From NCBI GenBank assembly GCA_964430735.1, contig CAYSFB010000010.1:5239-69238 (forward strand): a stretch of 64,000 bases of DNA, given 5' to 3'. The DNA comes from an uncultured Planctomycetia bacterium (GTDB lineage Bacteria > Omnitrophota > Gorgyraeia > 2-02-FULL-51-18 > JAGOUK01). Below are positions 13,039 to 56,863 of this stretch, piece after piece. Under the pieces are notes generated by a model. The model had not been told where the DNA came from. It saw only the letters and a program-made list of their open reading frames with translations, and did not search any database. Each line of letters starts with the position of its first letter. The first letter of the stretch is position 1. The position numbers and the translations under genes are program-made.

Positions 13039-13078
13039 GAGGAGGGGTCAGTCGATCGGCAGCGAAGGATAAGGCCGG

Positions 13079-20512: not shown

Positions 20513-21652
20513 TCACGATCCGTGTTGCTTCAGCAGATCGCGTAGAGCGCGAACCACGGCCGTCTGATCAGCGGGCTTCATCGACGGGTAGAACGGCAGA
20601 GAGATCGCTTCTTCTCCGAACCGTTCGGCCTCCGGAAAATCTCCGACTCTGAACCCGTATTTTTTCCTGAAGTAGGAAGTCAGATGGACCGGCCGGTAAT
20701 TGACGACTGTGGCGATCCCGCGTTGCTGCAGCCCTTGCACAATCCGGTCCCGCAGACCGGCCTGCACCCGGATGACGAACAAATGCCGGGCATGGCGCGT
20801 GTGTGGGCGCAGAACGGGAAGCCGAACACCTTCCATGTCCCGCAGAAGCCCGATATAACGCTCTGCGAGCGAGGTGCGTGTGCGGTGGGTCCGGTCAAGC
20901 CGCTCCAGCTGCGGCAGAAGCAGCGCGGCCTGAAGGTTGTCCATATTGTACTTCCAACCGAAGGTCACCATGTCCCAGTGGGTGTACCCTTCTTTCTGCC
21001 GATCGGAGGCCGTTTTGTTCATCCCATGATGACGAAGGAGCTTGAGTTTTTGACGAAGACTTTCGCTGTCGGTGACAACCGCACCGCCTTCACCCGACGT
21101 CAGATTCTTCGTGGCATAAAAGCTGAAGCAGGCCGCGTCGGAGAGCTGGCCGGGCCTCACGCCGTCCCGCTCGCCCTCGACGCAATGGGCCGCATCTTCG
21201 ACGACCGACAACCGATGCCTTCGGGCCATGAGGCGCAGCGCGCGCATGTCGCACATCTGTCCGTAAAGATGGACGGGGAGGACGGCCTTGGTTTTGCGTG
21301 TAACGGCCGATGGGATCTTGGAAACATCCAGATTACCGGTGTCCGGTTCGACGTCGCAAAAAACCGGCTTGGCTCCGGCCTGCAGAATGGCCGTGGCGGT
21401 CGCAATGAAGGTAAGTGGGGTCGTGATGACCTCATCCCCGGGGCCGACGCCGAGGGCTTCCAATGCGATATGGAGCCCCCCGGTGCAGCTGGTGACGCCA
21501 ATACCATGTTTGCGGCCCAGCCACGATGCGAATTTGGCTTCAAATTCCGCGACCGTGTCGCCCGTCGTCAGAATCGGCCCCGCCAACACGCGGGCAAACG
21601 ACCGGAGCTCTTTCGCCCCTAGATCATGGCGATAAAAGGGAATCTGTTTCAT
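20513..21652 (-). CDS. DegT/DnrJ/EryC1/StrS-family PLP-dependent sugar aminotransferase, copy 1
   Basis: Fold-type I aminotransferase of the sugar aminotransferase (SAT) family. The protein is 379 aa. Confidence 0.85.
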   Translation of the reverse strand: MKQIPFYRHDLGAKELRSFARVLAGPILTTGDTVAEFEAKFASWLGRKHGIGVTSCTGGLHIALEALGVGPGDEVITTPLTFIATATAILQAGAKPVFCDVEPDTGNLDVSKIPSAVTRKTKAVLPVHLYGQMCDMRALRLMARRHRLSVVEDAAHCVEGERDGVRPGQLSDAACFSFYATKNLTSGEGGAVVTDSESLRQKLKLLRHHGMNKTASDRQKEGYTHWDMVTFGWKYNMDNLQAALLLPQLERLDRTHRTRTSLAERYIGLLRDMEGVRLPVLRPHTRHARHLFVIRVQAGLRDRIVQGLQQRGIATVVNYRPVHLTSYFRKKYGFRVGDFPEAERFGEEAISLPFYPSMKPADQTAVVRALRDLLKQHGS

Positions 21653-21656: not shown

Positions 21657-22682
21657 TCAATGCATCGCCTTGCGGCCCGACGCGTCGATCACGGGCACAT
21701 GCCGCAACCAGACCTGGGACCGCCACCAGGATTCGTTCTGACTGTACCAGTCGATCGTCTTCTTCAAGCCTTCCTCGAAGCCGGTCCGCGGCTTCCACCC
21801 CAAAACCCGATGAGCGTGCCGGGCATCGCACGTGTGGCGGAAGACCTGGCCGGGCCGATCTCCGATCAGTTCGATGGGCGAATTGCTGTTCATGGTCTTT
21901 TTGATGACTTGGGCAAGCTCCAGGATCGAAATGTGGCGGCCGGAACCCAAATTGAGCACCTGACCCGCGACCTTACGAACCGGAGCATGGATCACCTTGT
22001 CCAACGCCTCACAGTGATCTCCCACGTAAAAAAAGTCGCGGGCCGCACCTCCGTCGCCATGAACCCTTAAAGGTTCGCCGAGAATGCAGCTCGTAATGAA
22101 GCGCGGGATCACTTTTTCCAAATGCTGGTTGGGTCCGTAATTATTGAACGGGCGGATGATGACCGTTGGAATCCGGTACGTCTGATAATACGAGTAGATC
22201 AGCCGATCCGCCCCGCATTTGGCGGCAGCATAGGGACTCATCGGGTTGAGAGAGTGATTCTCGTCCATTTTTTTGGAATCGGCGGTTCCGTAGACTTCGG
22301 ATGTCGAGATATGGACAAAACGTTCGATCCGGTTGCGGTAGCGGATGGCGGCGTTGGCTAAAAATTGCGTGCCGATCACGTCGGTTTGAAAAAAATCCGT
22401 GTTGTCATAGATCGACCGCGTCACATGGGACTCTGCCGCGAGATGGACGATGATATCCGACTGGGAAACGACCGAATCGACGAAGCTGCCGTTGCAGATG
22501 TTGCCGTGACGGAATTCGAACCGGGAGGAATTGAAAATATCCTGAGGGATGTTACCCAGGTTGCCCGCGTACGTAAGCGCGTCCAGTACGATGATCCGAT
22601 ACTTGGGATACTTGTAAAACAGGTGCCGGACAAGGTTGCTTCCGATGAATCCGGCGCCGCCGGTGATGCAGATGGTTTTCAT
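21657..22682 (-). CDS. rmlB: dTDP-glucose 4,6-dehydratase family (RmlB-like NDP-sugar 4,6-dehydratase)
   Basis: Aligns along its length with E. coli RmlB: TGGAGFIGSNLVRHL, HLAAESHV and NNYGPNQHLEKVIP. Confidence 0.7.
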   Translation of the reverse strand: MKTICITGGAGFIGSNLVRHLFYKYPKYRIIVLDALTYAGNLGNIPQDIFNSSRFEFRHGNICNGSFVDSVVSQSDIIVHLAAESHVTRSIYDNTDFFQTDVIGTQFLANAAIRYRNRIERFVHISTSEVYGTADSKKMDENHSLNPMSPYAAAKCGADRLIYSYYQTYRIPTVIIRPFNNYGPNQHLEKVIPRFITSCILGEPLRVHGDGGAARDFFYVGDHCEALDKVIHAPVRKVAGQVLNLGSGRHISILELAQVIKKTMNSNSPIELIGDRPGQVFRHTCDARHAHRVLGWKPRTGFEEGLKKTIDWYSQNESWWRSQVWLRHVPVIDASGRKAMH

Positions 22683-22727
22683 TTGGCTCCTGGTATCTCC
22701 TGTGATTTTCTTAAAGTCTGCGTCAGA

Positions 22728-23309
22728 TCAAATACTTTCGAGAGTCCGGATCATCGCCTCTCCACGGCCTTCGTGTATCCGGGCCGGCACTCCCGCGGCC
22801 AACGCGCCGCTCGGCACGTCTTTTGAAACGACCGCATTCGCAGCAATGACCGCACGGTCGCCGATACGGATCCCGCCGATGACCACAGCATGAGCAAAAA
22901 AGAAACAACGGTCGCCGATTCGGGGAAACGCATGGATTTCGTCGGCAGTCCAGGATCGCACCCCGAACGTCACGCCCTGATATAAAGTCGCTCCGGAGCC
23001 GATCACCGTGCCGCGTCCAATCACGATGCCGGAAGGGTGGGTGATCAAAAGGCCGGGCCCGATCCGGGCATTGAATTCAATCTCGGCACCGGTGCGGCGT
23101 TGATTGCTTCTCGCCAGCCACCAGGCGATATACGTCCATCCTTTTTCATGAAAAGCATGGGCGATGCGATGCATTAGAACCGCTTTAAAACCGGATTTAA
23201 ACAGCAAGCTTTCCCAAAAGATTTTGGCGGCGGAATACTTTTGACCCCGGAGCCGGTAGGTTTCCGCATAGCGGTCCAGGTCGCTTTGAATCAGCTTGAT
23301 GAGGGTCAT
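22728..23309 (-). CDS. Left-handed beta-helix (hexapeptide) acyltransferase, serine-acetyltransferase-like sugar O-acetyltransferase
   Basis: Hexapeptide repeats are visible (IGRGTVIGSGATLYQGVTFG...IGDRCFFFAHAVVIGGIRIGDRAVIAANAVV), preceded by a CysE-like N-terminal helical domain. Confidence 0.7.
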   Translation of the reverse strand: MTLIKLIQSDLDRYAETYRLRGQKYSAAKIFWESLLFKSGFKAVLMHRIAHAFHEKGWTYIAWWLARSNQRRTGAEIEFNARIGPGLLITHPSGIVIGRGTVIGSGATLYQGVTFGVRSWTADEIHAFPRIGDRCFFFAHAVVIGGIRIGDRAVIAANAVVSKDVPSGALAAGVPARIHEGRGEAMIRTLESI

Positions 23310-24025
23310 GAGGGCTGAGTGGATCCTTTGAAGCTTTTCATAAAGCGGGGTGCGTCAGCGCCTTCGTTGAAAATCAGATCTAGAATGCTGACGGAATGCT
23401 CGAACGGCGAAAAGAGCTGCTTATATTCGGGATATCCGGAATAGTCCATGTAACTCACGCGGATCCCTTCTTTTTCAAACAGACTCTCGTCCAAATATGC
23501 CTTGGCGGCAGGACCCGATAAATAGTGTGAAGCGCCGACGTCCTGACAGAGCCGGACCAAACGTTCCGTCTTTCCACCCCGAAGCTCATAATCCATCGAG
23601 CGCGTGATCCGGGTTTTGATTCCGAGAACCGAACAGATCTCGGCGATGAACTTCTGATTGATCACACTCAACGAATCTTCCGCGCATTCGAGATAAAGCG
23701 GCTCAAAACGGCCTCGGTATTCCTTAAAATACCTGGCCTTCGAATAGTTCTGGCAGATCGACTTCCAATGTTTCACCGCCCAGCCCGGCTGGCTCACCTT
23801 CGCTTCGCGGATTTTTTGGCCAAAATGGTTCGTGACCGGAATCGTCAGCCACCGGGGTCCGTCGGGCGTCTGGATCCGGTTCCGGTTCCGCCAGTCGTTC
23901 ACAGTATACTGAGCGTCATCGTAAAATATGAACTCATCGACGGACTTAATGAGATCGAAATACCCCTTCCACGGAATGTAATTCGATTGAAGAATCGCCG
24001 CTTTGCGAGGGGTCATTGAGGGCAA
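23306..24025 (-). CDS. WbqC-like family protein (unknown function, common in O-antigen loci)
   Basis: 239 aa. The N-terminus AILQSNYIPWKGYFDLI recalls the WbqC family. Assigned from memory, with no enzymatic motif to confirm it. Confidence 0.45.
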   Translation of the reverse strand: MPSMTPRKAAILQSNYIPWKGYFDLIKSVDEFIFYDDAQYTVNDWRNRNRIQTPDGPRWLTIPVTNHFGQKIREAKVSQPGWAVKHWKSICQNYSKARYFKEYRGRFEPLYLECAEDSLSVINQKFIAEICSVLGIKTRITRSMDYELRGGKTERLVRLCQDVGASHYLSGPAAKAYLDESLFEKEGIRVSYMDYSGYPEYKQLFSPFEHSVSILDLIFNEGADAPRFMKSFKGSTQPS

Positions 24026-24040: not shown

Positions 24041-24733
24041 TTAAGCGCTTTTCGGCAGTTCCGGCACCGGCGCGACGCAGCCGGAATCGTCGTTCTGCGG
24101 ATCGTTGACCCGGGTCGAAACGGGCTGGATCTCCCACGGCAATTCCTGCGACCCAGCCAGCAATCCGGCCGTTTGCGTGGGCGCGCTGATCCGCGGATCG
24201 AGCCACGCCGCCCGGGCCTCAGGCGGGATGATCACCGGCATCCGTTCGTGGATCGCGCGGACAGGGCCGAGCGCCTCCCGCGTGAGAATGGCGCAGGTGC
24301 GGATCTGGCCACCGTCGCCGTCGCTCCAATCCGACCAAATCCCGGCCATCGTGAAGGGCTGGCCTGATTTTTCCTTAAAGTAATACGGCTGCTTGTGCAA
24401 ACCTGCTTTTTTCCATTCGTAGTACCCGTCCGCCGGGATGAGACAGCGGTGGTGGAGCATCGAGGCCTTGAAGCTGGGCTTTTCGAGGACGGTCTCGGAG
24501 CGTGCGTTGATGAGCCGGGCGCCGATGGCCGGGTCTTTGGACCAGGATGGGATGAGGCCCCAGATCGCATGGTCGAGCCGACGGCCGGCCGAAGGTCCGG
24601 CGACGACCATCGCGATCGGCTGGGATGGCGCGATGTTGAATCGCGCGACCAACCGGGCGGCTTCGGCCTTCGGGACTCCGAATTCCCTGCTCAAAACGTC
24701 CGGAGATGCATGAAGTGAATAGCGGCCGCACAT
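24041..24733 (-). CDS. SOS-response-associated peptidase (SRAP; YedK/HMCES family abasic-site sensor)
   Basis: MCGRY at the N-terminus provides the catalytic Cys2 that forms the thiazolidine crosslink. YYEWK and the conserved His are also present. Confidence 0.75.
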   Translation of the reverse strand: MCGRYSLHASPDVLSREFGVPKAEAARLVARFNIAPSQPIAMVVAGPSAGRRLDHAIWGLIPSWSKDPAIGARLINARSETVLEKPSFKASMLHHRCLIPADGYYEWKKAGLHKQPYYFKEKSGQPFTMAGIWSDWSDGDGGQIRTCAILTREALGPVRAIHERMPVIIPPEARAAWLDPRISAPTQTAGLLAGSQELPWEIQPVSTRVNDPQNDDSGCVAPVPELPKSA

Positions 24734-24742: not shown

Positions 24743-24762
24743 TATAATCAATTTTTAAGGAG
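24743..24762 (+). promoter_or_regulatory. -10 box TATAAT plus AAGGAG Shine-Dalgarno ahead of a small plus-strand ORF
   Basis: TATAAT at 24743-24748. AAGGAG at 24757-24762, 8 nt before the GTG at 24771. The divergent SRAP start is only 37 nt away. Confidence 0.3.
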
Positions 24763-24770
24763 AACCGTTG

Positions 24771-24933
24771 GTGAAAAATTTTGTTTTGGCCATCGCCTAC
24801 ATCGACCCCGGTTCGGGAAGCCATTTGTTCCAGGTGCTGATCGCGGGGTTACTCGCCGCGCTTTATGGTATCAAGGTTTATTGGCTTCGGATCACGGGAT
24901 TCGTAAAACAATTTTTTAAGAAATCCAAAGGTT
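24771..24933 (+). CDS. Small hydrophobic protein (about 54 aa), unannotated in track
   Basis: VKNFVLAIAYIDPGSGSHLFQVLIAGLLAALYGIKVYWLRITGFVKQFFKKSKG. A strong SD precedes it. Its stop overlaps the start of the next gene. Confidence 0.4.
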
Positions 24934-26344
24934 GACGGGTTTGACGGCGTTCGTAAACGGCGCTCGGGACCTTCCCGCCTCTTTCCGCGACCGCGACGGC
25001 CGGCTCTTTACCGAATCCGGCGTGCTTTACCGCCGCGTCCATCCTTCGTACGAGCCTCACTATGCCCAGCTGATGAGTTCCGGCTTGTACCGCAAGCTGA
25101 CGGACGAAAAACAGCTGGTCGCACATGAAGAATGTCCGGTCCCGCCGGATCTGGCCGGCGTCGCCTCCCGCGTCCTGCGTCCGTTCCGGCTTCCGGTCAT
25201 CTCCTATCCTTTCGAATGGTGTTTCGACCAGCTCAAGGACGCCGCGCTGCTCACCCTCCAGATCCAAAAGACGGCTTTGGCACACGGCATGACGCTCAAA
25301 GATGCCAGCGCCTACAACGTCCAGTTCCACGAAGGCCGGCCGGTCTTCATCGACACCCTTTCGTTCCAAACGCACGTCGACGGAGATTCGTGGGCGGCGT
25401 ACCGGCAGTTCTGCCGTCATTTTTTGGCGCCGCTGGCGCTGATGAGCTATCGCGGTGCGGAACACGGACGGCTGCTCAGGGCGGATCTGGAAGGCTTGTC
25501 GCTGGGTCTAGCGAGCGCCGCGCTGCCGTGGACGTCCCGGCTCAACCTGCATCTTTTGCTCCATCTGCATGCTCACGCGGATTCCGAACGCGCGGCAGGA
25601 GCGTCGGCGCCTGCGCGGCCGGGCGCCTCCGCTTCGATGACCCGTTCCGCGCTTCTCGCCCTGGTCGAGAGCCTGCAAAACGCGGTCCGCGGACTGCGGC
25701 TCAAAAATACCCGGAACGTATGGACGCGGTATTACGGTCAAACCCACAACTACGCGGACGCGGGACTCGAAGAAAAAGAAGCGGCGGTCAAAAATCTTTT
25801 GGACCGCATCTCCTTCTCCAAAGTCTGGGATATCGGGGCCAACACCGGACGGTTCAGCCGCTTGTGCGCGGAGCGCTCGGCGCTGACCCTCGCGCTCGAC
25901 AGCGACCCCGAATGCGTCAACGAGCTCTATACCGGCTTGCGCTCCGAAGCGAACCCGTTCTTGTTTCCGCTGGTGTATGACGCAGCCGATCCATCGCCCG
26001 CGATGGGCTGGGCGCTCGAGGAACGGGATTCGCTCGAAGCGCGCTTCCGGCCGGAGCTCATCCTCGCTTTGGCGCTGGTGCACCACCTCGTAATCGGGCG
26101 CAACCTCACCTGGGAACAGCTCGCCGGGCGCTGGAGCCGGACGGCGAAGCATCTGATCGTGGAATTCGTGCCCAAATCGGATTCACAGATCGCCCGGCTT
26201 CTGGCGCACCGCAAGGACGTCTTCACGGATTACGACGAGCCGTCGTTCCTGGCGGCCTTCGGCGGACATTACCGGATCGAAGCGTCCGCCGCCATCCAGC
26301 CGAACGGCCGGAAGCTTTTTCTCATGACTTCGCGCCATGAATAA
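24932..26344 (+). CDS. Two-domain protein: N-terminal protein-kinase-like fold plus C-terminal class I SAM methyltransferase
   Basis: A kinase-like catalytic-loop / DFG-like pattern (LKDASAYNVQFHEGRPVFIDTLSF) sits in the N-terminal 200 aa. The MTase motif I VWDIGANTGRFS lies in the C-terminal half. Confidence 0.5.
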   Translation: MTGLTAFVNGARDLPASFRDRDGRLFTESGVLYRRVHPSYEPHYAQLMSSGLYRKLTDEKQLVAHEECPVPPDLAGVASRVLRPFRLPVISYPFEWCFDQLKDAALLTLQIQKTALAHGMTLKDASAYNVQFHEGRPVFIDTLSFQTHVDGDSWAAYRQFCRHFLAPLALMSYRGAEHGRLLRADLEGLSLGLASAALPWTSRLNLHLLLHLHAHADSERAAGASAPARPGASASMTRSALLALVESLQNAVRGLRLKNTRNVWTRYYGQTHNYADAGLEEKEAAVKNLLDRISFSKVWDIGANTGRFSRLCAERSALTLALDSDPECVNELYTGLRSEANPFLFPLVYDAADPSPAMGWALEERDSLEARFRPELILALALVHHLVIGRNLTWEQLAGRWSRTAKHLIVEFVPKSDSQIARLLAHRKDVFTDYDEPSFLAAFGGHYRIEASAAIQPNGRKLFLMTSRHE

Positions 26345-27914
26345 CCGCACAAAGCTTTTTTTACTCCACCCGTTCCTGACGGCGCTCTACTTTCCGCTGA
26401 GTCTCTACTCCCGGAACACGACCGAGACCAGCATCGGCACGCTGGCCTGGACGGCCGCCGTGTGCCTGACTTGTACCGGCGTTATTTTTGGGCTCCTGGC
26501 GTTTTGGACTAAAAGGGCTGAGCGGGCCGCTGTGTGCGCCAGCATCTTCGTCTTCTTCTTCTTTATTTACGGTTATGTGTTCGCGTTTGCAAGACAATGG
26601 GCCGTCGACCCCTGGGTCATGAACTTCGAGCCGGTCCAGCGGCCGCATTTCCTTCGCTCCGCAATTATGGCCCTTCACGCCGCGCTTCTCATTCTGTATT
26701 TGGCCGGAGCTGCCCTGCTGATCCGCTGGACCTTCAAGCCCTTGCCCGGCAGCCCGCGCATAAACGGCTTGATGACCCTGGCATCCGCTTATCTGATCAT
26801 CGCCGCGCTTGCTGCGACCGGGGTCGACCTGCATCGCGCCTCGCGGCCGGTATCGGCCGGTGAGCCCGCGCCCAGTCAGACACAAACCATCTCAACTCCC
26901 GACTCGATACGCTACAAACCCGACGTCTATTACATCATCCTGGACGGCTATGCCCGCACCGATGTCCTGAAGGCGCTTTATAAATACGACAACTCCGAAT
27001 TTATCGGGTTTTTGGAGCGGTTGGGGTTTTATGTTCCCAAGAACAGTTATTCCAATTACTCCAGGACGCTTCCATCCCTGGCTTCATCACTCAATATGAA
27101 GCATTTGGGACTCACGGACTCTCAAGCCGGGGAGACCGGACAGCCCAAAGCAATCGCAGGCAGCCGCGAAGCCAAGGCGCACGACAAGAGATTCTTCGGA
27201 CTGATCCGCAACAACGAAGTGATGCGGCGGTTCAAGAGGCACGGATATCGAATCGTGAACCTCGCCTCCACCTGGTCAGCGACGATGAGTCTGCCCCAAG
27301 CGGACATCCGATACAAATACGGCCGGAGCTGGTTCAAAACGGAGTTTGACCAGGTCCTGTTCGGCACGAGCCTCTTCAAGGCGTTCGACATCGGGTTCAG
27401 GCAGGATCTGGCCAACTGGCATCTCTATAATTTTCACCAGATGCCGAAGCTGGCGGAACTCAAGTCACCGAAGTTCGTGTTCGCGCATTTTGTGCTTCCG
27501 CACAGCCCGTACGTGTTCGACCGGAACGGCAACGCCCTTAAGGAAGTCCGGTACGAGAACATGTGGGACAAGGAAACCAATGACTTTGCGAGCGCCCAAG
27601 CCTACCGCGATCAGCTGATCTTCACGTCCCGGAAGGCCGCCGAGATGATCGAGCAGATCCTCCGGCGCTCCAAAACGCCGCCGATCATTATCGTCCAGGC
27701 GGACCACGGCATGAACCTGGTCGTCAATTCCCCGTTCAAATTGGTCAAAACGGCCCGGCACGCCATTTTCAGCTCCTATTATTTTCCGGACGGCGACTAT
27801 TCGCGGTTGTACGATTCGATATCGCCCGTCAATACGTTCCGGGTCATCCTCAACCAATACTTCGGCGAAAACCTCGAACTCCTCCAGGACGCGAGTTACT
27901 ACACAGGCACCTAG
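26337..27914 (+). CDS. Sulfatase/LTA-synthase-family membrane protein (phosphoglycerol or phosphoethanolamine transferase-like)
   Basis: Five N-terminal TM helices. The extracytoplasmic alkaline-phosphatase-superfamily domain carries YYIILDGYARTD and HFVLPHSPYVFD. Confidence 0.65.
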   Translation: MNNRTKLFLLHPFLTALYFPLSLYSRNTTETSIGTLAWTAAVCLTCTGVIFGLLAFWTKRAERAAVCASIFVFFFFIYGYVFAFARQWAVDPWVMNFEPVQRPHFLRSAIMALHAALLILYLAGAALLIRWTFKPLPGSPRINGLMTLASAYLIIAALAATGVDLHRASRPVSAGEPAPSQTQTISTPDSIRYKPDVYYIILDGYARTDVLKALYKYDNSEFIGFLERLGFYVPKNSYSNYSRTLPSLASSLNMKHLGLTDSQAGETGQPKAIAGSREAKAHDKRFFGLIRNNEVMRRFKRHGYRIVNLASTWSATMSLPQADIRYKYGRSWFKTEFDQVLFGTSLFKAFDIGFRQDLANWHLYNFHQMPKLAELKSPKFVFAHFVLPHSPYVFDRNGNALKEVRYENMWDKETNDFASAQAYRDQLIFTSRKAAEMIEQILRRSKTPPIIIVQADHGMNLVVNSPFKLVKTARHAIFSSYYFPDGDYSRLYDSISPVNTFRVILNQYFGENLELLQDASYYTGT

Positions 27915-27963: not shown

Positions 27964-29070
27964 ATGAAGGTTCCCTTCGTCGATCTAGCCGCCCAATACC
28001 GTTCGATCAAGCCCCAGGTCCAGACCGCCGTCAACGCGGTTCTCGACCGCTGCGACTTCATCCTCGGCAACGACGTTGCCGCGTTCGAAAAGGAATTCGC
28101 CGCCTGGGCCGGCGCGCCGCACATGGTCAGCTGCGCCAACGGAACCGACGCGCTCGTCCTGGCCCTTAAGGCTTGCGGCATCGGACCCGGCGACGAAGTC
28201 ATCACGACGCCTTACACCTGGATTTCCACCGTCCTGGCCGTCTCCCTCGCCGGCGCCAAGCCCGTCTTCGCCGACATCGACCCGGCCACCTACAACATCG
28301 ACCCGGCCCAGATCGCCAAGCGCATCACGCGCAAAACCAAGGCCATCCTGCCCGTCCATCTGTACGGCCAGTCCGCCGCGATGGACGGCATCGCCGACAT
28401 CGCCAAAAAGCACAAGCTCCTCATCATCGAAGACGCGGCGCAGTCGCACGGTTCCTATTGGCGCGGCATGCGTGTCGGACAGACGGGCGTGGCGACCTGC
28501 TACAGCTTCTATCCCGGCAAGAACATCGGCGCCTACGGCGACGCGGGCGGCGTGACGACGTCTGACGCGAAGATCGCGCGGAACCTGCGGATGCTGCGGA
28601 ATATGGGGCAGGAAGTGAAGCACAAGCACGAGGTGATCGGCACGAACAGCCGCCTCGACTCGCTGCAGGCGGCGGTGCTGCGGGTGAAGCTCAAACATTT
28701 GGAAGAGTGGACGGAAGCCCGGCGCAAGGCGGCCCAGCGCTATCACCGGATGCTCAAGGACGTGAATCCGGCTGTGGCGCCCAAAGAAGCCGACGGGGTC
28801 CGCCACGTATTCCACGTCTATGCGGTTCAAGTCCCCCGCCGCGATGCGGTGTTGAAAAAGTTGAATGCCGACGGCGTGTCGGCCCAGGTGCACTATCCGA
28901 CCCCGGTCCACCTGCAGCCCTGCTACAAATCCCTCGGCTACAAGCGCGGCGCGTTTCCCGTGGCGGAGCGGGTCTGTTCCCGCATCCTTTCCCTGCCGAT
29001 GTACCCCGAGATCACCGAAGCCCAGCAGGCTTATGTGGTCGACAAGCTCAAAGAAGCCCTAAAAAAATAA
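27964..29070 (+). CDS. DegT/DnrJ/EryC1/StrS-family sugar aminotransferase, copy 2
   Basis: 368 aa. The N-terminus (FVDLAAQYRSIKPQV...NGTDAL) and the rest are typical of WbpE/ArnB-like enzymes. Confidence 0.85.
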   Translation: MKVPFVDLAAQYRSIKPQVQTAVNAVLDRCDFILGNDVAAFEKEFAAWAGAPHMVSCANGTDALVLALKACGIGPGDEVITTPYTWISTVLAVSLAGAKPVFADIDPATYNIDPAQIAKRITRKTKAILPVHLYGQSAAMDGIADIAKKHKLLIIEDAAQSHGSYWRGMRVGQTGVATCYSFYPGKNIGAYGDAGGVTTSDAKIARNLRMLRNMGQEVKHKHEVIGTNSRLDSLQAAVLRVKLKHLEEWTEARRKAAQRYHRMLKDVNPAVAPKEADGVRHVFHVYAVQVPRRDAVLKKLNADGVSAQVHYPTPVHLQPCYKSLGYKRGAFPVAERVCSRILSLPMYPEITEAQQAYVVDKLKEALKK

Positions 29071-29100: not shown

Positions 29101-30990
29101 CTATCCGTTCAGCCAGTTCTCCCGCCATTTTTCGAACACATAAAGCGTCCAGAGTTGTTTGCGGTTGTCGCGCTTGCCGGCCAGATGCTGGGCCAGAAGC
29201 GCCGACACAGCGTCGGGGTTGAAGAACCCGGCCTTGCGGATCCGCTCGGGCGCGAGCGCCGTCTCGAACTCGCCGCGCAGGTCCTGACGGATCCAATGCG
29301 CGATCGGGATGCCGAAGCCCTTCTTGGGCCTGTCCATGATCTCGCCCGGAATGCGGCCGGCGATCATCTTCTTAAAAAAGTACTTGGGCTGGCCGTTGCC
29401 GAACCGGATATTGGCCGGGATCCGGCGCACCGTTCCCACCAGCCGGTCGTCCAGGAGCGGTGACCGCGCCTCGAGCGAATGAGCCATGCTCGCCCGGTCC
29501 GTTTTGACCAGGATGTCCCCTTCCAGATAGAACCGGAAATAAAACTCCTGCAAGTCGTCGCGCGCGTCCGCGGGCGCGTCTCCCAGCACGTCGTCGATCC
29601 CCCGGTACACGCCGGCAGCGTCCGCCGCCAGATCCGGCGACAGCAGCGTCCCCAATTCCGTGTCCGCAAACGCGCCGAGCCACACCTGGCTGCGGATCCG
29701 CGCCGGATACCCCAGCCCCTTGGTGAACTGCTTGGCCTTGAAGTCCAGGCTCAGATTGTCCATCGACACGGGCAGCGCCTGCGCGGCACGCGCGAGCATC
29801 CCTTTGCTCCACGGCGCCCAGCGGTCGATGTGCCCGGCCATCCGCGCGGCCGCGAACGTCGGGTACCCGCCAAAAAGCTCGTCCCCTCCGTCGCCGCCGA
29901 GCGCGACGGTCACGGACTTGCGCACCAGCCTCGACAGCAGAAAGGTCGGGATGAACGAAGCGTCCGCCATCGGTTCGTCCAGATGCGCCAGGATCTGCCG
30001 GTGCTCCCGGACCATCGCGCCGAGCGTGAGCTTTTCTTCGACGTGTTCGGTGCTGAAGAATTCGGCCGCGCGGCGTGCGTGCGCAGACTCGTCGAACGAA
30101 GCCTCTTCGAACCCGATCGTAAACGTTTTGATTTTGCGGCCCGGGTCCAGCGCCCGCATCTCCGCCAGCACCGCGGTCGAATCGAGCCCGCCGCTCAAAA
30201 AAACCCCGAGCGGGACGTCGCTCACCAGCCGTTTTTTGACCGCGTCGCGGAAAAGTTCCTGAGCCTCGGCCAGCCAGCCGGCTTCAGTCTTGGCGAAGAC
30301 GGCCGGACCGTAGGGCCGTGTGTACCGGAACACGCGCGTCCCCGAGGCCGAGACTTCGATCGCCGTCCCCCCGCGCAGCTTGCGCACGCCGGCCCAGATC
30401 GTGTCCGGCGCCGGCACGTATTCGAACGCGAGGTATTTGACGATCGAACGTCGGTCCGGTTCGCGCGAAACGGCCGGATGCTGCAGAAGCGCCCCGGGTT
30501 CGGATGCAAAAATAAATCCGCCCGCGGCGTTCGTGTAATAAAAAGGCTTCTTGCCGAAAGCGTCGACGGCGGCCGTCAGCACGCGGCGCTCCCGGTCCCA
30601 GACCGCGAACGCGAACATCCCCTCCAATTCCGACAGGCAGGCCGCGCCCTTTTCCTCGAACAGCTGGAGCAGACTCTCGGTGTCGGAGCGGGTCTTAAAT
30701 TTGCGGCCGCGCGACTCGAGTCTTTGGCGGATTTCCTTGAAGTTGTAGATCTCGCCGTTGAAGACGATTGTGTATCGGCCGTCGGCGCTGGTCATCGGCT
30801 GGGCGCCGTGCTCGAGGTCAATGATCTTGAGCCGGCGGTGGCCGAGCCCCAGGCCCGATGCGGCGTCTTCAAAATAGCCTTCGGAGTCGGGGCCCCGGTG
30901 GACGAGCGCGCGGGTGATTTTTTTAAGCAGTCCGGACGGATCGGCGGGCGGGCGGGCGGCGGGATAAAAAAATCCGGCGATGCCGCACAT
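29101..30990 (-). CDS. Asparagine synthase (glutamine-hydrolysing) family amidotransferase, copy 2
   Basis: MCGIAGFF at the N-terminus. The protein is 629 aa and paralogous to 14173..16029. Confidence 0.85.
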   Translation of the reverse strand: MCGIAGFFYPAARPPADPSGLLKKITRALVHRGPDSEGYFEDAASGLGLGHRRLKIIDLEHGAQPMTSADGRYTIVFNGEIYNFKEIRQRLESRGRKFKTRSDTESLLQLFEEKGAACLSELEGMFAFAVWDRERRVLTAAVDAFGKKPFYYTNAAGGFIFASEPGALLQHPAVSREPDRRSIVKYLAFEYVPAPDTIWAGVRKLRGGTAIEVSASGTRVFRYTRPYGPAVFAKTEAGWLAEAQELFRDAVKKRLVSDVPLGVFLSGGLDSTAVLAEMRALDPGRKIKTFTIGFEEASFDESAHARRAAEFFSTEHVEEKLTLGAMVREHRQILAHLDEPMADASFIPTFLLSRLVRKSVTVALGGDGGDELFGGYPTFAAARMAGHIDRWAPWSKGMLARAAQALPVSMDNLSLDFKAKQFTKGLGYPARIRSQVWLGAFADTELGTLLSPDLAADAAGVYRGIDDVLGDAPADARDDLQEFYFRFYLEGDILVKTDRASMAHSLEARSPLLDDRLVGTVRRIPANIRFGNGQPKYFFKKMIAGRIPGEIMDRPKKGFGIPIAHWIRQDLRGEFETALAPERIRKAGFFNPDAVSALLAQHLAGKRDNRKQLWTLYVFEKWRENWLNG

Positions 30991-30992: not shown

Positions 30993-32780
30993 TCAGAAGC
31001 GCCGTTTCTTGGGACGGTAGATCTTGAAGTTGCCGATCGTGCGGTCGAGGTAGTAGTGGCGGTTCAAAAGCGCGAACCCGGCGCCGCTGTTCTGGGGGTT
31101 GAGACCCAAAAGCGACAGCCGGTCGACCACCGCGATGTCGAGCGCGCCGGAGGCGAAGAACTGGTCGAGCATCGGCAGATCTTTTGCGATCAGGATGTCG
31201 CGCAGCATCATGAACCGGAGACCGCCGATTTTTTCACGCCGTTCCAGATAGTACTGAAGGTCGTTCCGCATCGCGACGGCGGTGCCGGGCCGGGCGATCG
31301 CCGCCAGGTACTTCACCGTTTCCAGGTGTCCCGATTCCCCGTAATTCATCCACGACTCGGCCGTCGTGTATTCGCCGGTCTGGTTCAGGTTCAGCGCCGC
31401 GTTCACCGGGAAGCAGAACAGCAGGGACGCGGCGAGGAGCGCCTCCAGGAATTTAAGCCGGCCCGCGACCCAAAAAATGACCGCCGCGCCCGCGGCCGCC
31501 GCCAGCGGACGGTAATACGCGTTGAGAAAAATCTTGTAGCGCGGAGCGTACGGCTGATCCCATTGAAGCAGCAGGTAGTCTCCGACCCGGAAGTAATACC
31601 ACAGCACCGCGGCCGTGACGGCCGCGAGCAGCGGGACGATCCACCAGGCGTCCCGGAGCGCGGCGGCGATGTCCTCGGCGCGGCTGCGGAACACGGCGAC
31701 GCAGCCGCAGAGGATGGCCGCGATGAACAACGGGTACACCGGGTGCTGGTACTTCATCATGTCGATCGATCCCTTGACCAGCAGGTACGGGATCCAGACG
31801 GCGAACGCGGTCATCCACAGCATGTCTTCCGGACGCGTCTTCCGGACCTGGAGGAATTCGACGAACCGCCGCAGGGCCGTCACCGACATCAGCACGAAGA
31901 ACGGAACGGACATCCAGTACACCGGCCAGCGCAGAATGCGGTCCATGTTCGCAAAAACCCTTCCGAGGAACTCGGCGTTGACCGCGCGGGGGGTTTTTTT
32001 GAACAGCGTGTATTTGAGGAACACCATCACGTCGGTGCCGGTGCACACGCAATAAATCCACCAGACGCCCCAGGCCGCGATCGTCGCCGGAATAAAAACC
32101 GCGACGACGTCCTGAAGAAGCTTTTTCCACTGCCAGCCCGCGATCCGGTAGGCGAAGATGCCGCCGAAGATCAGGAACGGCGTGATTTCCTTGCTCAAAA
32201 AGACGAGCGCGAGCGCAAACGCCTGACCCAGCCGCATCGGCCATTGCCGCACGCCGTCGCGCATTTCCATCCGGACAAAAAAGTACGCGAACATGAGCGT
32301 AAAAAACGCGGTTCCCGTCGTGTCGGCGTCGAGCTCCATCGAATGCTGGAGCAGCAGCGGATTGACCGCATACAGCAGAACGCCCGTATAGGACGCGACG
32401 CGACGCAGCAGCGGGTCTTCGCTCCTGAGCAATTCCTCGACGATCCACTTGAAAAAAACGCCGCCCAGGACAAACAGGAGCAATCCGAACGCGCGGGCAG
32501 GGACTTCCGACTCTCCGAAGAGGCGGAAGATCCCCGCCATCGTGTATTCGTACAGCGGCGGATGCGCGATGTAGTGGGAGCCGTCCAAAAAGGTCTTGGG
32601 TCCCTTTTCGAGGATAAAGTGGGCGCGCAGGGAGATTTCTGTCTCGTCGAGGGTGAAGGGCTTGGTCAGCGCCGGGATCGCGGCCAGGACGGCGGTCATG
32701 ACGAGGCCGGCCGCGAGCAGGACGGCTGCGAGCCGGTTGGCGGGATGAATTTTGAGTTCTACGGCCGACAGGGGCTTCAT
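30993..32780 (-). CDS. ArnT/PMT-like GT-C membrane glycosyltransferase
   Basis: 595 aa multi-pass. Loop 1 reads FTLDETEISLRAHFILEKG, an ArnT-like DE motif. It lies directly downstream of a DPM1-like GT2. Confidence 0.55.
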   Translation of the reverse strand: MKPLSAVELKIHPANRLAAVLLAAGLVMTAVLAAIPALTKPFTLDETEISLRAHFILEKGPKTFLDGSHYIAHPPLYEYTMAGIFRLFGESEVPARAFGLLLFVLGGVFFKWIVEELLRSEDPLLRRVASYTGVLLYAVNPLLLQHSMELDADTTGTAFFTLMFAYFFVRMEMRDGVRQWPMRLGQAFALALVFLSKEITPFLIFGGIFAYRIAGWQWKKLLQDVVAVFIPATIAAWGVWWIYCVCTGTDVMVFLKYTLFKKTPRAVNAEFLGRVFANMDRILRWPVYWMSVPFFVLMSVTALRRFVEFLQVRKTRPEDMLWMTAFAVWIPYLLVKGSIDMMKYQHPVYPLFIAAILCGCVAVFRSRAEDIAAALRDAWWIVPLLAAVTAAVLWYYFRVGDYLLLQWDQPYAPRYKIFLNAYYRPLAAAAGAAVIFWVAGRLKFLEALLAASLLFCFPVNAALNLNQTGEYTTAESWMNYGESGHLETVKYLAAIARPGTAVAMRNDLQYYLERREKIGGLRFMMLRDILIAKDLPMLDQFFASGALDIAVVDRLSLLGLNPQNSGAGFALLNRHYYLDRTIGNFKIYRPKKRRF

Positions 32781-33460
32781 GTGCGGAACGCCAGCCGCCT
32801 CAACTGGGAAAAAAACTGACCGATCACCTTGCCCTCCAGCTTGCTCGTTCCGCGCGAACGGTCCTTGAACACGTACGGAACCTCGCGGATCTTTCCTTCA
32901 TGGCGCGCCCGCACAAAAACCTCCAGGCCGATCTTGAACCCTTCCGGCGTCAGCGTCACGCCGTCCATCGCCGCGCGGCGCACCATGAAAAAACCGCTGG
33001 TCGAATCGCGGACCGGCGTCACGAGGTTCGCCGCCAGACAGGCCGCGCGGGACGCGGCGCGGCGGAGAAACGGCCAGTTTTTCACGCCGCCGCCTTTGAC
33101 GTAACGGCTTCCGACGGCGATGACCGCTCCCCCGCGGATCGCCTCCGCCAGCAGCGGCAGGGCTTCGGCGGGATGGCTCAAATCCGCGTCCATGACGCAC
33201 AAAATGTCGCCCTTCGCCTCGCGGAATCCGTCCATGACCGCCGGCGCAAGGCCGCGCGGCTTCCCCTTGCGGTTCACGGCCCGGATCTTCGGGATTTCCA
33301 GACTCGTGACGAGCCTGGCGGTTCCGTCGGGAGAATCGTCGTCCATGACGATCACCTCGTAGTCCGAGATCGCCGCGTGCGCGAACACCCGGTCGATCGC
33401 CGAGAGAAGTTCCGGCATGTTGCCGGACTCGTTGTAGGTCGGGATGATGACGGAAATCAC
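32777..33460 (-). CDS. GT2 polyprenyl-phosphate sugar synthase (DPM1-like)
   Basis: ISVIIPTYNESGNMPEL...VIVMDDDSPDGT...CVMDADLSHP. Its stop overlaps the GT-C start (ATGA-type coupling). Confidence 0.8.
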   Translation of the reverse strand: MISVIIPTYNESGNMPELLSAIDRVFAHAAISDYEVIVMDDDSPDGTARLVTSLEIPKIRAVNRKGKPRGLAPAVMDGFREAKGDILCVMDADLSHPAEALPLLAEAIRGGAVIAVGSRYVKGGGVKNWPFLRRAASRAACLAANLVTPVRDSTSGFFMVRRAAMDGVTLTPEGFKIGLEVFVRARHEGKIREVPYVFKDRSRGTSKLEGKVIGQFFSQLRRLAFRT

Positions 33461-33479
33461 AGGGCTGTATTATACAGAA

Positions 33480-34970
33480 CTAGCCGTCCGTCCGGACCGG
33501 CACGTAGAAAAAGAGGCGCTGATTGACGGTTCCCGGGATGGCGATATTCCCGACGAGCCGGTAATGGGCGCGGAGTTCGGCGATGAACTCGGGCGTGAAG
33601 TTCCGGTCGGCCTTGATGGCCTTGAACCAGAAGTACGTGACGACCAGCCGGATCCGGCCGGAGCGCAGGTCTTCGAGGATGGGTGTCTGGTCCCATACCC
33701 CGCTGTAGGCGGCCTGGGCCATCGGAAACGGCTCAAAATAAACCGGCCGGCCGTTGGCCACGAGCAGCGTCATGTCCCAGCTGATGATCGGATCCGGAAA
33801 CTGCCGGATCACGGCCGAGAGTTTGTCATAAAAAGCTTTTTGCTCCGCGCGGACGGCGCGGACTTTCTCCGGAGAAAAATCCCGGATGCCGCTTCCCAGG
33901 ACGGACTGCGCGGCAATGCCGGCTGCGGCCACCAGCCCGATCAACGGCTTGAAGCGCTCCGGGCCGGAAACGCCCCACAGCCGCCCGGCCGCCAGCGTCG
34001 ATGCGGCCATGAAAGGCAGCATGTAATTGGTGTCCGACCCCTGCTTGCCCAGCGAGACGGTCATAAGCGCCGTAAAAACGAGGTAGAGATTGGGAAGGCT
34101 TGTGCCGGACGTCCCGCGCCAAAGCGCCGGCAAAGCCAGCGAAACGGCCGCGGCGATGACGTTGAACGGCTGGGACAGGAATGTATCGCGCCAATAATCG
34201 GCGATGAAACGCAGGAAGAAGATCCGCCGTCCGATCTCGTGCGTCGTATGAAAATAATACTGCCCTCCGGTCGCGAGGTTGAGCGCCGCATAAATCGCGA
34301 CCACCGCCCCTCCGGCGGCCAGCGCAAACCACGCCAAATCCTTCCAACGGCGGGTCCAGAGCAGATGAACCGCCCATGCAGCGGCGGCGGCGATCGCCGA
34401 CGATTTGGTGAACACCGCGGCGACGGCCAAAGCCGAGCCGATCCAAAAAAACTGCCGCTTCGCATATCCGGACGCCACATACGCGCCGAACGCCCAAAGC
34501 GCCGCCAGCTCCAAAGCGACCGCCGTCATATCGACATTGACCTGGGCCCCCCAGCGCTCGACAAACGGAAGCGTCAGAAAAAAGCATCCCGTCCCGAACG
34601 CGATCACCCTGGAGGATGTCATCCGGAGCAGGATGAGGCCGATCCAAACGGCCGACGCCGCCGACGCCGCCAGGCAAATGATCCTGCCGCCGGCCATCGG
34701 CAAATCAAAAAAAGACTGAACGGCGGCCGACAGGACAAGATAGACCGGTCCGTACGGCACGACGCTGAACGGCGGCTGGGAGAGGTCGTGATACGGCCAA
34801 ATGCCCAGGCCGGTCAATCGGATGGATTGGGCCAGCGCAGGTTCGCCGAGATTGGTGAGATAGGGATAGCTGATCTTAAAAGCCGCCCGTATCAAAAATG
34901 CGGCCGCACCGGTTGCCGCGCATGCCGCCGCGGCGATCCCGATCCATGAACGTAAAATCCGGATGATCAT
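33480..34970 (-). CDS. Polytopic membrane protein, putative GT-C/DUF2029-like glycosyltransferase; paralog of 42406..43878
   Basis: 496 aa. Its C-terminal soluble region (...LLVANGRPVYFEPFPMAQAAYSGVWDQTPILEDL...HYRLV) aligns with the C-terminus of the plus-strand gene at 42406. Confidence 0.45.
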   Translation of the reverse strand: MIIRILRSWIGIAAAACAATGAAAFLIRAAFKISYPYLTNLGEPALAQSIRLTGLGIWPYHDLSQPPFSVVPYGPVYLVLSAAVQSFFDLPMAGGRIICLAASAASAVWIGLILLRMTSSRVIAFGTGCFFLTLPFVERWGAQVNVDMTAVALELAALWAFGAYVASGYAKRQFFWIGSALAVAAVFTKSSAIAAAAAWAVHLLWTRRWKDLAWFALAAGGAVVAIYAALNLATGGQYYFHTTHEIGRRIFFLRFIADYWRDTFLSQPFNVIAAAVSLALPALWRGTSGTSLPNLYLVFTALMTVSLGKQGSDTNYMLPFMAASTLAAGRLWGVSGPERFKPLIGLVAAAGIAAQSVLGSGIRDFSPEKVRAVRAEQKAFYDKLSAVIRQFPDPIISWDMTLLVANGRPVYFEPFPMAQAAYSGVWDQTPILEDLRSGRIRLVVTYFWFKAIKADRNFTPEFIAELRAHYRLVGNIAIPGTVNQRLFFYVPVRTDG

Positions 34971-36652
34971 TGGACGGAATAAATATCAAAAATGGGCGGA
35001 ATCCGGGGATCCTTGGGAACCGGCCTGAAGACCGGTGGCAGGGGCTTGAGCGGCCGGAGGATGCCGGGTCTCTCGACACGATAATATTCTTTGAAGATCT
35101 GCGGGTTGTAGAGCGCCGTCGCCAGGTCGACGAACAGGTACCGGATTTTTTCGCGGCGAGTCCATTCGATCAGATCGTCCATGCTGTCGAGCTTGGGCCA
35201 TCCTTTGTAGTTCCCGCCGGAAAGAGCCTCAAAGTAAAACAGGTAGCTCGCGAACAACTCGCTGACGAGCACCTTTTCGCCGGGCTTCGTGACCGTCTGG
35301 GACCAGGCCAGCTGGAGCTTGAACGCGGATGGAAATTCGAACGATTTGCGGACGTCTTTGCGAATCCAATCGCCGCTGTGGAGGCCCAGCCCCGCGATCA
35401 AAATTCCCGACGCAACGGCTGCGGCCAAGTTTCCGCGGCCGGTCAGCTGCGGCAGACGGGACCACAGAACCCTGACGCCGGCGACCGCGTACACCGGGAC
35501 CAGGATCAGCACCGGATAGAGAAGCCGGGTCGGAGGGCTGTTGGGAAAAATCTTCGAATACCACGCCACGAACACCGCGAAGATCGCCCACAGCGCGAGC
35601 GTCGGGACCGCTGCCGCATGCCGACGGTTCGCCCACCATCCCGCACCGGCCAAAAACACGAGCGCGGCCGCCCAGACCTCCTGCCACGCGGCGGTCCGGT
35701 GATAAAACCCGCTTAAAAAATCAGGTTCCATCGGACGCCAGAACGGCAGGGGCTTGAGGCCGTCGGCGATCATCGCCGGATTCCGCCGGACCAGGCCTTC
35801 CCAGAAGGTCTGCAGCATCTGCGCCGGCGAATGCGTGCTCAGGTAATTGGCCAGCGTGAACCGCCCTTCGGCCGCGCGCTCGTAAGAGAATTCCTCCCAG
35901 CGGTCGATCCACAGCACGCCGCTCGAATCGCTGTACAACGGCGATCCATAGACCACCTGGTTCCGGATCAAGAGCGGCAGCACCGTCAGAACGAACACGA
36001 CCCAGAATCCCCAGAATGCGCGCGAACGGAAAAGTTCCCGGATGTTCCGCCGATTCCACCACAGCACGCTCACGGCGAACACCGGCAGCAGCAGAATCCC
36101 GATGCTCTTCGCCAAAAACGCGAGGCCCGCGAAAAGCCCCGCCGCAATCCATCGGCGGCGGTCGTCCCGGCCCGTGGCAAGCGCCCACCAAAACGCGATG
36201 CAAAAAACCCCGAGCAGCCCCTCGCACGCCACCGTGGTCACCAGCGTCAGGAATCCCGCGCTCATGACCCAGAGCCACGCGGCTCCGCCCGCGGCGGCGG
36301 TTCCGAACATCCGCTTCACCGCAGCAAAATACACGGCGAGGAACGCAAACCCGATCGCATAACTCACGAGCTTGGCAGTGACGAAGAATTGGATGTCCCT
36401 TGCCGCGAACGGGGAGATGAGAAGAAGGTAGAGCGGGTGCTGGGTGGCTTCGGTGTAGACACCGCGCAACAGGTTCGGAAGGTGCATGAGGACGCCGCCC
36501 GTCTCGCGGATCTGGAGCGCCGCCGAGAGGTAGGACGTGGTGTCCATTTCGGCGGGCTGGGTGTGCGAGAGAACCGCGCACCATCCCGCGAGAGCGTAGG
36601 CGGCTAACGCGGATAGAAAAAGCAGCAAAGTCCAACCGCGGCGGATGCTCAA
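34967..36652 (-). CDS. ArnT/PMT-like GT-C membrane glycosyltransferase
   Basis: 561 aa. Loop 1 (TQPAEMDTTSYLSAALQIRETGG) patterns like the ArnT PDETRYAEISREM loop. It overlaps the next gene by 4 nt. Confidence 0.55.
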   Translation of the reverse strand: MSIRRGWTLLLFLSALAAYALAGWCAVLSHTQPAEMDTTSYLSAALQIRETGGVLMHLPNLLRGVYTEATQHPLYLLLISPFAARDIQFFVTAKLVSYAIGFAFLAVYFAAVKRMFGTAAAGGAAWLWVMSAGFLTLVTTVACEGLLGVFCIAFWWALATGRDDRRRWIAAGLFAGLAFLAKSIGILLLPVFAVSVLWWNRRNIRELFRSRAFWGFWVVFVLTVLPLLIRNQVVYGSPLYSDSSGVLWIDRWEEFSYERAAEGRFTLANYLSTHSPAQMLQTFWEGLVRRNPAMIADGLKPLPFWRPMEPDFLSGFYHRTAAWQEVWAAALVFLAGAGWWANRRHAAAVPTLALWAIFAVFVAWYSKIFPNSPPTRLLYPVLILVPVYAVAGVRVLWSRLPQLTGRGNLAAAVASGILIAGLGLHSGDWIRKDVRKSFEFPSAFKLQLAWSQTVTKPGEKVLVSELFASYLFYFEALSGGNYKGWPKLDSMDDLIEWTRREKIRYLFVDLATALYNPQIFKEYYRVERPGILRPLKPLPPVFRPVPKDPRIPPIFDIYSVQ

Positions 36653-36662
36653 TCAGCGCCCT

Positions 36663-42309: not shown

Positions 42310-42405
42310 GGTGATTACCGACGATGTTACTTAAGATTGTCATTCCTTGTAAAGTTCTTTTAGCGTCCGTAGCAGCTCCTGTGTTATCCTTTCGAAGGTC
42401 CTCGA

Positions 42406-56338: not shown

Positions 56339-56863
56339 CTAGTCGCGGTTATCGAGGTAGATGAGCACGTCTTTGATCGAGACGATGCTCATCGGGGTCC
56401 CGTCGGGGTTCATCACGGGGATGTGCCGGAACCCGCCCATCGCCATTTTGCTGACGACGAACGCGATCGGATCTTCGGGACGGACCGTTTCGGGATTGGG
56501 AGTCATCACGGCCGCGGCCGTGACTTTGCTCAGGTCGGGATATTTGCCGGCGGCGCGCAGGAGCAGATCGCGCTGGCTGATGATGCCGACGAGCTTGCGC
56601 TTCTTGAAGACCAGGACGCAGTCCTTGTGCTCGTTTTCGAGGACTTTGACGATCTGCTGCACGGAGTCGTCGTCGGCGCACACCAGGAGGTCTTTGCCGG
56701 TCACGAGCTCCGAGATCGGTTCGGTGAGCATGACCTTCTGGATCTTTTCGCCGCGCTTGGGTCCGGGCAAATTCTGATGCATCAGCGAATGGAAACACTT
56801 GGGGCAGCGGTCCGCGCCGAGGATGTAAGCCGAGCCGCAGGAGGGACAGTGCAAGTCAGCCAT
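56339..56863 (-). CDS. Zinc-ribbon plus tandem CBS-domain protein
   Basis: The N-terminus has the zinc ribbon CPSCGS...CPKC. Two CBS motifs follow. Confidence 0.7.

Follow-up and report, generated by a model that had tools for sequence, protein, structure and literature searches.

NoeA from Sinorhizobium meliloti and Lani_1194 from Legionella belong to a family of proteins in which a kinase-like domain precedes a class I S-adenosylmethionine (SAM)-dependent methyltransferase domain. The member described here is encoded at 24932..26344 on the plus strand of a 64,000-nucleotide stretch of contig CAYSFB010000010.1, from an uncultured bacterium of the Omnitrophota; this whole stretch is referred to as the window. 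The gene lies between those of a membrane mini-protein and a NoeB-like membrane protein, and its product is an ordinary member of a widespread, biochemically uncharacterised family.

The family was described in silico, as the novel kinase-like family Lani_1194, in a 2022 survey of the Legionella pan-kinome published in Scientific Reports (PMC9758233). According to that survey, R38 of Lani_1194 is the likely equivalent of K72 of PKA, the equivalents of D166, N171, and D184 are kept within atypical motifs, and the glutamate of the ion pair is not identifiable. A class I methyltransferase is fused to the kinase-like domain in 94% of about 2000 homologues. Among 816 gene neighborhoods, 65% contain a hypothetical gene of about 65 codons (Lani_1193) and 38% contain a gene for a protein with an alkaline-phosphatase fold (Lani_1195), both on the same strand as the kinase gene (PMC9758233). 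The survey regards NoeA and NoeB, encoded in the nodL-noeA-noeB operon of S. meliloti, as the equivalents of Lani_1194 and Lani_1195, reports an HHpred match between NoeB/Lani_1195 and EptA with an expectation value (E) of about 1e-26 to 1e-27, and proposes that the family decorates secreted signals or the envelope (PMC9758233). The 2022 in silico work thus already covered the domain make-up, the unusual catalytic residues, and both neighbors. In two papers, noeA and noeB are described as host-range nodulation genes needed on particular Medicago species, and modification of the Nod factor by their products is presented as a hypothesis (PMC9048898, PMC4053727).

A kinase and a methyltransferase are also joined in WbdD. 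In this protein of 708 residues, the methyltransferase is N-terminal, the kinase comes next, and a coiled coil at the C-terminus recruits WbdA (PMC3482155). Wzt recognises, through its carbohydrate-binding module, the methyl-phosphate cap that WbdD places on the glycan, in a pathway that relies on an ATP-binding cassette (ABC) transporter (PMC3482155).

A NoeA-type cassette in the window

The target open reading frame (ORF), as first described, begins with TTG and encodes 470 residues. The public annotation of the identical gene places the start at a TTG three codons further downstream, giving 467 residues. BLASTP aligns the protein with NoeA at 32% identity over 458 residues (E 1e-67), and the published kinase-domain sequence of Lani_1194 is matched at 47% identity (E 3e-54). 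In a tblastn search of annotated plasmids, noeA is found on 57 symbiotic plasmids of Sinorhizobium with 96% coverage and 31.7% identity (E 3e-44). The target is accordingly read as a full-length NoeA homologue and a member of the NoeA/Lani_1194 family. On the basis of these matches, of the S. meliloti mini-ORF motif, and of the match between NoeB and the hidden Markov model (HMM) of the partner family (both described below), the three window genes constitute a mini-ORF/NoeA/NoeB cassette.

The characteristic motifs of the 470-residue protein are LKDASAYN (residues 122-129; nt 25295-25318, +), FIDT (139-142; nt 25346-25357, +), and VWDIGANTG (298-306; nt 25823-25849, +). In an alignment of 35 homologues that are approximately 45-52% identical to the query, D124, N129, D141, W299, D300, G302, N304, and G306 are invariant, as are R34 and the N-terminal SFRD motif. 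Given this invariance, the quoted motifs are not chance features.

The cassette is compact. The mini-ORF (24768..24935, +) begins with TTG and encodes 55 residues, or 54 from the GTG at 24771 in the public annotation, and its TGA stop (24933-24935) overlaps the TTG start of the target. The downstream ORF of 525 codons (26337..27914, +) begins at 26337, 8 nt ahead of the TAA stop of the target, and the junction reads ATGAATAA. These overlaps confirm that the three genes form a tightly, translationally coupled module. The three genes and a DegT/DnrJ/EryC1-type sugar aminotransferase gene (27964..29070, +; Pfam E 8e-123), the last of the series, make up a plus-strand block that is flanked on both sides by minus-strand genes. 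The DegT-type gene occurs in the same order in the closest relative (L082) but is absent from most other loci, and it stands outside the conserved three-gene core. An earlier, sequence-only reading of this DNA had described the ORF and its motifs, a tiny coupled ORF ahead of it, a sulfatase-family membrane protein after it, and a plus-strand island within a minus-strand locus. These observations hold, and the two neighbors prove to be true functional associates that are conserved across phyla.

The architecture is common. A word-indexed search recovered at least 8000 full-length relatives (clusters at 90% identity) of approximately 460 residues, most of which are unnamed or labelled as PrmA or SAM-dependent methyltransferase. 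A profile of the N-terminal domain alone recovered 4807 clusters at 50% identity, and its top matches share the architecture of the target. The possibility that the fusion is unique to the source genome was rejected in view of these thousands of relatives. In species-representative genomes, at least 595 family loci were found, distributed over Chloroflexota, Acidobacteriota, Omnitrophota, Desulfobacterota, Pseudomonadota, Clostridia, Actinomycetota, a candidate-phyla bacterium, and an archaeon. Neighborhoods were analysed in 80 of these loci and in the window, 81 loci in total. Independent gene calls in three unrelated contexts give the same three genes, twice amid unrelated neighbors, and because the same genes recur in such different surroundings, the module looks self-contained.

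The target shares with NoeA and Lani_1194 the domain order, the replacement of lysine by arginine, the Asp/Asn/Asp pattern, the same-strand small ORF upstream, and the membrane protein with an alkaline-phosphatase fold downstream, and it agrees with the published description on each point (PMC9758233). However, it is found in a large glycan-biosynthesis locus of a diderm bacterium rather than in a nodulation operon, and no NodL-type or OafA-type acetyltransferase is encoded immediately upstream of the cassette.

The kinase-like and methyltransferase domains

The N-terminal domain (residues ~11-225; 24962..25606, +) is predicted to have a fold that is protein-kinase-like, though atypical. The AlphaFold2 model of the full-length protein, calculated on the family alignment, comprises two domains and has a mean predicted local distance difference test score (pLDDT) of 86.2 and a predicted template-modelling score (pTM) of 0.89. 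A separate model of residues 1-232 has a pLDDT of 85.7. When this second model is compared with the PDB by Foldseek, the top 50 matches are all protein-kinase-like folds, including PknG, RNase L, CK2, Rio2, AceK, and the kinase domains of lanthipeptide synthetases. The order of its elements is also compatible with a kinase: two strands, helices, two strands, and a long helix are followed by short strands that carry D124/N129, in the catalytic-loop motif, and D141, in the DFG-like motif. The D124, N129, and D141 triad and R34 are invariant across phyla. R34 occupies the usual place of the ATP-binding lysine and aligns with R38 of Lani_1194; the equivalence of target residues to PKA positions is taken from the Legionella survey (PMC9758233).

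The sequence-only reading had called this half of the protein kinase-like, and the fold comparison agrees with it, pointing to a bilobal kinase fold. The fold model returns kinases but the Pfam, PDB, and hhalign profile searches do not, and the catalytic Asp/Asn/Asp residues are conserved but the lysine is replaced by R34. Since kinase-type folds are matched yet no relation to kinases is seen at the sequence-profile level, the modelled domain is best described as a very divergent kinase-like domain. It is probably an atypical ATP-dependent phosphotransferase that is catalytically active.

The C-terminal domain (residues ~238-470; 25643..26341, +) harbors the SAM-binding motif I VWDIGANTG, the acidic motif II residue D323, and a conserved [ND]PSP...GW motif after strand β4. 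Pfam finds no match to the target protein, NCBIfam gives only sub-threshold matches to methyltransferase motif I, and searches of PDB sequences with the single target sequence and with the full-length profile return nothing significant, neither a kinase nor WbdD. In the Foldseek comparison of the full-length model with the PDB, the C-terminal half resembles ChlM, NodS, AzeJ, and the methyltransferase domain of WbdD with E of about 1e-7. With many methyltransferases matched at this level and motif I invariant, the model supports the earlier assignment of this half as a class I SAM methyltransferase.

The membrane mini-protein

The mini-protein of the window has an AYIDPGSGS core followed by a hydrophobic helix with an invariant glutamine and a basic tail. 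The same arrangement is seen across loci, in which the core reads Y-[LI]-D-P-G-[TS]-G-S and is followed by a hydrophobic helix and a basic tail. In 64 of the 80 loci with upstream room, the mini-ORF is directly upstream of the NoeA-like gene on the same strand. Three further copies are masked by mis-called starts and five more lie elsewhere in the locus, bringing the count to about 72 of the 81 loci. In a comparison of 70 loci, the tyrosine, the aspartate, the proline, the second glycine, and the serine of the motif and the glutamine within the helix are 100% conserved, and a tryptophan at the end of the helix is 93% conserved. The mini-protein is the tightest genomic partner of the NoeA-like gene.

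Standard annotation does not capture this protein: Pfam and NCBIfam give no match to the window mini-protein, and a homology search with its 55 residues, a very short query, returned only four unnamed matches. A chance ORF was considered and rejected on account of the conservation across phyla. In S. meliloti, a hypothetical ORF of 71 codons overlaps the start of noeA and reads ...VPAHAYLDPGTGSMLVQGLIGAL..., identifying it as the mini-protein. By size and position, the mini-ORF would correspond to Lani_1193.

Only ~9 residues precede the invariant motif in the window mini-protein. The mini-proteins of the closest relative (P0273, 73 residues; cf. L085:4754-4969) and of S. meliloti (71 residues) differ in having a signal-peptide-like extension, with A-H-A just before the invariant tyrosine. 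Signal-like A-x-A junctions are frequent among the mini-proteins. Together with hydropathy and charge, these junctions make it most likely that the invariant octapeptide faces outward and that the basic tail is cytoplasmic. P0134 and P0127, two database proteins, combine the mini-protein and the kinase-like domain in a single reading frame. If real, these fusions would fix the tail on the cytoplasmic side, and they fit a role as membrane anchor. The mini-protein probably tethers or partners the NoeA-like enzyme at the membrane.

The NoeB-like membrane partner

The third gene of the cassette encodes a NoeB/Lani_1195-like protein of 525 residues with N-terminal transmembrane segments (4-5 hydrophobic segments in total) followed by a predicted alkaline-phosphatase-superfamily domain of the EptA/LtaS type. 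Its match to the Pfam Sulfatase family (PF00884) is very weak (E 0.086); in the partner family, 7 of 13 members match PF00884, the best with E 4e-8, and the family profile gives only weak sulfatase matches in the PDB. NoeB itself matches the partner-family HMM, with E going from 3e-16 in the first iteration to 1e-27 once the profile is iterated. Five residues, D203, T244, H389, D456, and H457, are conserved in the family, and T244 among them is the candidate nucleophile. This pattern appears to be that of the Thr-nucleophile phosphotransferases EptA and LtaS and not that of the formylglycine sulfatases. With the iterated profile, a polytopic membrane protein of the alkaline-phosphatase/sulfatase superfamily is detected in 54 of the 81 loci, many of which are on truncated contigs, and it is adjacent to the NoeA-like gene in 43.

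In its N-terminal transmembrane segments and the predicted alkaline-phosphatase-superfamily domain that follows, as well as in its conserved threonine and putative DHG metal site, the window protein resembles EptA/MCR-1, LtaS, BcsG, and PptA. The BcsE-BcsF-BcsG system offers a further analogy, in that a cytoplasmic protein, a tiny single-helix protein, and a transferase are encoded together. In contrast to the cassette, however, none of these known systems includes a kinase-methyltransferase, and the match of the window protein to Pfam Sulfatase is, as noted, very weak.

Proposed function and alternatives

We consider it likely that the NoeA-family kinase-methyltransferase, acting within its three-gene module, adds or remodels a small substituent, containing phosphate and/or methylated, on a glycoconjugate that is secreted or belongs to the envelope. 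The NoeA-like enzyme would be a soluble cytoplasmic protein in which a phosphotransferase domain is packed against a SAM-methyltransferase domain, both being active. The single-helix mini-protein would hold it, or assist it, at the cytoplasmic face of the membrane, where it would act on a lipid-linked precursor or a lipid donor. The NoeB-like polytopic enzyme would have its catalytic domain on the outer face and would transfer a phospho-group outside the cytoplasm, as do EptA and LtaS. The folds, the conserved residues, the family membership, and the linkage of the genes are shown by the analysis; activity of both domains, membrane topology, substrate, and division of labor are inferred. The window is a large glycan locus rich in GT-C (PMT_2, GT87), small glycosyltransferase family 2 (GT2), MBOAT, and GDSL proteins. 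This setting is counted in favor of the proposal, and the acceptor in the window would be the glycan made by the surrounding locus.

Several points weigh against this proposal. The fold scores of the kinase-like domain are modest (Foldseek against the PDB: E 6e-4 to 4e-3, TM-score 0.30-0.46), and the domain lacks the canonical Lys-Glu ion pair. No kinase family was matched when 26 N-terminal domains were scanned against Pfam, even at E≤10, the N-terminal profile matched neither a kinase nor WbdD among PDB sequences, and hhalign of this profile with the PKA catalytic core gave a probability of 0.1%, too low for residue mapping. About one third of the loci have no detectable NoeB-like partner. 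The proposed topology of the mini-protein is drawn from hydropathy and charge only, and the P0134 and P0127 fusions could be frameshift or gene-calling artefacts. No family member has a demonstrated enzymatic activity. The host-range genetics of noeA and noeB reportedly go back to Ardourel in 1995. The Nod factors of S. meliloti are not known to carry phosphate or methyl groups, so that no hint to the chemistry comes from the only member that has been studied genetically.

One version of the proposed model places the chemistry on a lipid donor. EptA/LtaS-type enzymes use phospholipid donors and release diacylglycerol, which must be recycled. The kinase-like domain could re-phosphorylate the diacylglycerol left by the NoeB-like transferase, and the methyltransferase could modify the head group, for instance by turning phosphatidic acid into its methyl ester or by converting phosphoethanolamine into N-methylated derivatives or phosphocholine. 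A dedicated donor would thereby be regenerated, and its head group would be moved onto the glycan by NoeB. Donor use and diacylglycerol release in the EptA/LtaS type, the tight linkage of the three genes, and the Thr-nucleophile pattern of the partner are in keeping with such a cycle, as are the APH-type kinase and phosphoethanolamine N-methyltransferase templates listed for Lani_1194 in remote-homology tables (PMC9758233). However, these templates are generic for their folds, the cycle is entirely inferential, no lipid-binding feature was identified, and about one third of the loci lack the partner. We regard this version, attractive as it is, as unlikely.

Alternatively, the methyltransferase alone may be catalytic, with the kinase-like domain acting only as a pseudokinase scaffold to which a nucleotide, the substrate, or the membrane partner attaches. 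The absence of the Lys-Glu pair, with arginine in place of lysine, would suit such a role, as would the modest fold scores and the lack of sequence similarity to active kinase families. However, the Asp/Asn/Asp triad does not vary even between very distant phyla, a constancy not easily accounted for unless there is catalysis or, at a minimum, metal-nucleotide binding, and the scaffold is for us a rather improbable explanation.

A more novel possibility is a trans-membrane relay, to which we would give a low probability. The cytoplasmic kinase-methyltransferase would build an unusual lipid-linked phospho-head group (e.g., a methyl-phosphate donor), the NoeB-like enzyme would transfer this group outside, and the octapeptide of the mini-protein would participate. 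The Y-L-D-P-G-T-G-S octapeptide might carry or accept the group covalently, in analogy to DltX in D-alanylation or to protein phosphoform modification by PptA/EptC, or it might form a piece of the transferase active site.

The sequence-only reading had proposed a WbdD-type chain terminator or phosphomethyl-capping enzyme. In that scheme, a phosphate is added by the kinase to the terminal sugar at the non-reducing end of a polyprenol-linked glycan and is methylated by the methyltransferase, so that the chain is capped and its length is set. The target and WbdD do share the same two fold types in one polypeptide (kinase-like and class I methyltransferase) and a surface-glycan context, the target gene lying within a glycan locus, and the methyltransferase domain of WbdD is found at Foldseek ranks 6-7 with E of about 5e-7. 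This match, however, covers the generic methyltransferase domain only (~200 columns); the kinase domain of WbdD is not among the top 50 Foldseek matches of the N-terminal domain, and the family profile matches no WbdD chain in the PDB at E≤10. The target has 470 residues rather than 708, its domain order is reversed, and in the model it ends at residue 470 without a C-terminal coiled coil. It also has obligatory membrane partners, which WbdD lacks, and its constant partner is a periplasmic EptA-like enzyme for which WbdD has no need.

The genomic context differs as well. No ABC-transporter domains (Wzm/Wzt) were found among the window ORFs scanned (≥180 codons), and no ORF with a Walker A motif and LSGGQ, the ABC ATPase signature, was found in any of the 81 family loci. 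The family is also present in monoderm lineages, an archaeon, candidate-phyla bacteria, and a Nod-factor operon. Membership in the WbdD type was rejected on domain order, coiled coil, sequence homology, and ABC transporter, and the WbdD-specific chain-terminator model, which we now hold to be very unlikely, is removed; phosphorylation followed by methylation remains conceivable chemistry for the target. The sequence-only reading was right that the fusion is independent of WbdD, but it overlooked the existing NoeA/Lani_1194 family.

Finally, it is most improbable that the mini-protein or the NoeB-like enzyme is itself the substrate, being modified by the kinase and/or methyltransferase for regulation or maturation. 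In favor of this, the top fold matches are protein kinases and lanthipeptide-synthetase kinase domains, and the mini-protein, the closest genomic associate, has invariant Tyr/Thr/Ser residues. Against it, the invariant motif is most likely external and thus separated from a cytoplasmic enzyme, and the cytoplasmic tail is poorly conserved except in charge.

The surrounding glycan locus

Upstream of the cassette, and well inside the glycan locus, an SOS-response-associated peptidase (SRAP) gene (24041-24733, -) is transcribed divergently, ~35 nt from the start of the mini-ORF. Two possible expression signals of the cassette can be read from the sequence in this gap behind the SRAP gene: a hexamer, TATAAT (24743-24748, +), and a Shine-Dalgarno sequence, AAGGAG (24757-24762, +). 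The promoter regions of the SRAP gene and of the cassette must overlap.

Pairs of a small GT2 gene (227-245 residues, polyprenyl-phosphate-sugar-synthase-like) and a large PMT_2/GT-C or GT87 gene occupy 30993-37385 and 41572-48182. At least three such GT2/GT-C pairs are present in the window, along with additional GT-C genes. This set suggests that several glycosylation steps in the periplasm depend on lipid-linked sugars. A minus-strand block encodes a 4,6-dehydratase, a hexapeptide acyltransferase, and a WbqC-like protein (21657-24025, -), with a DegT aminotransferase gene (20513-21652) beside it; this combination is typical of acylated amino-dideoxyhexose synthesis.

Two paralogous genes for asparagine-synthase-like amidotransferases of the AsnB type are found at 14173-16029 and 29101-30990, both on the minus strand. 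In two Aminicenantes-type loci (L027 and L042), members of the AsnB-type cluster (c38) are likewise found close to the NoeA-like gene. A radical-SAM/SPASM enzyme is encoded next to a 398-residue protein with a methyltransferase domain (11842-14128, -), a pairing that is unusual for sugar modification. A second methyltransferase fusion, of a class I methyltransferase (Methyltransf_23) to a GT2 glycosyltransferase, is encoded at 53887-55362 (-) and has 491 residues. The window also carries a secretin gene (753-2372, -) and genes of the pyruvate:ferredoxin-oxidoreductase type (56863-59801, -). These last two features point to a diderm and probably anaerobic source organism, which has a guanine-plus-cytosine content of about 60%.

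Implications for the NoeA family

The NoeA family is found in many bacterial phyla and some archaea, and no reaction has been assigned to it, even though the genetics of noeA and noeB date back to 1995. The window contributes one more member and no new principle. The comparison built around it, however, goes beyond earlier descriptions in several respects: it defines the near-invariant YxDPGxGS-helix motif, shows the mini-protein to be the tightest partner, gives higher linkage estimates than before, and identifies the Thr-nucleophile pattern in the NoeB-like partner. It also indicates that the module is self-contained, and in the loci analysed it shows no link to glycan export by ABC transporters. 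This comparative picture yields concrete, testable hypotheses for the biochemistry of the family. If the trans-membrane relay were true, the cassette would represent a new and very widespread machine for envelope decoration, and the relay would explain the host-range genes noeA and noeB.

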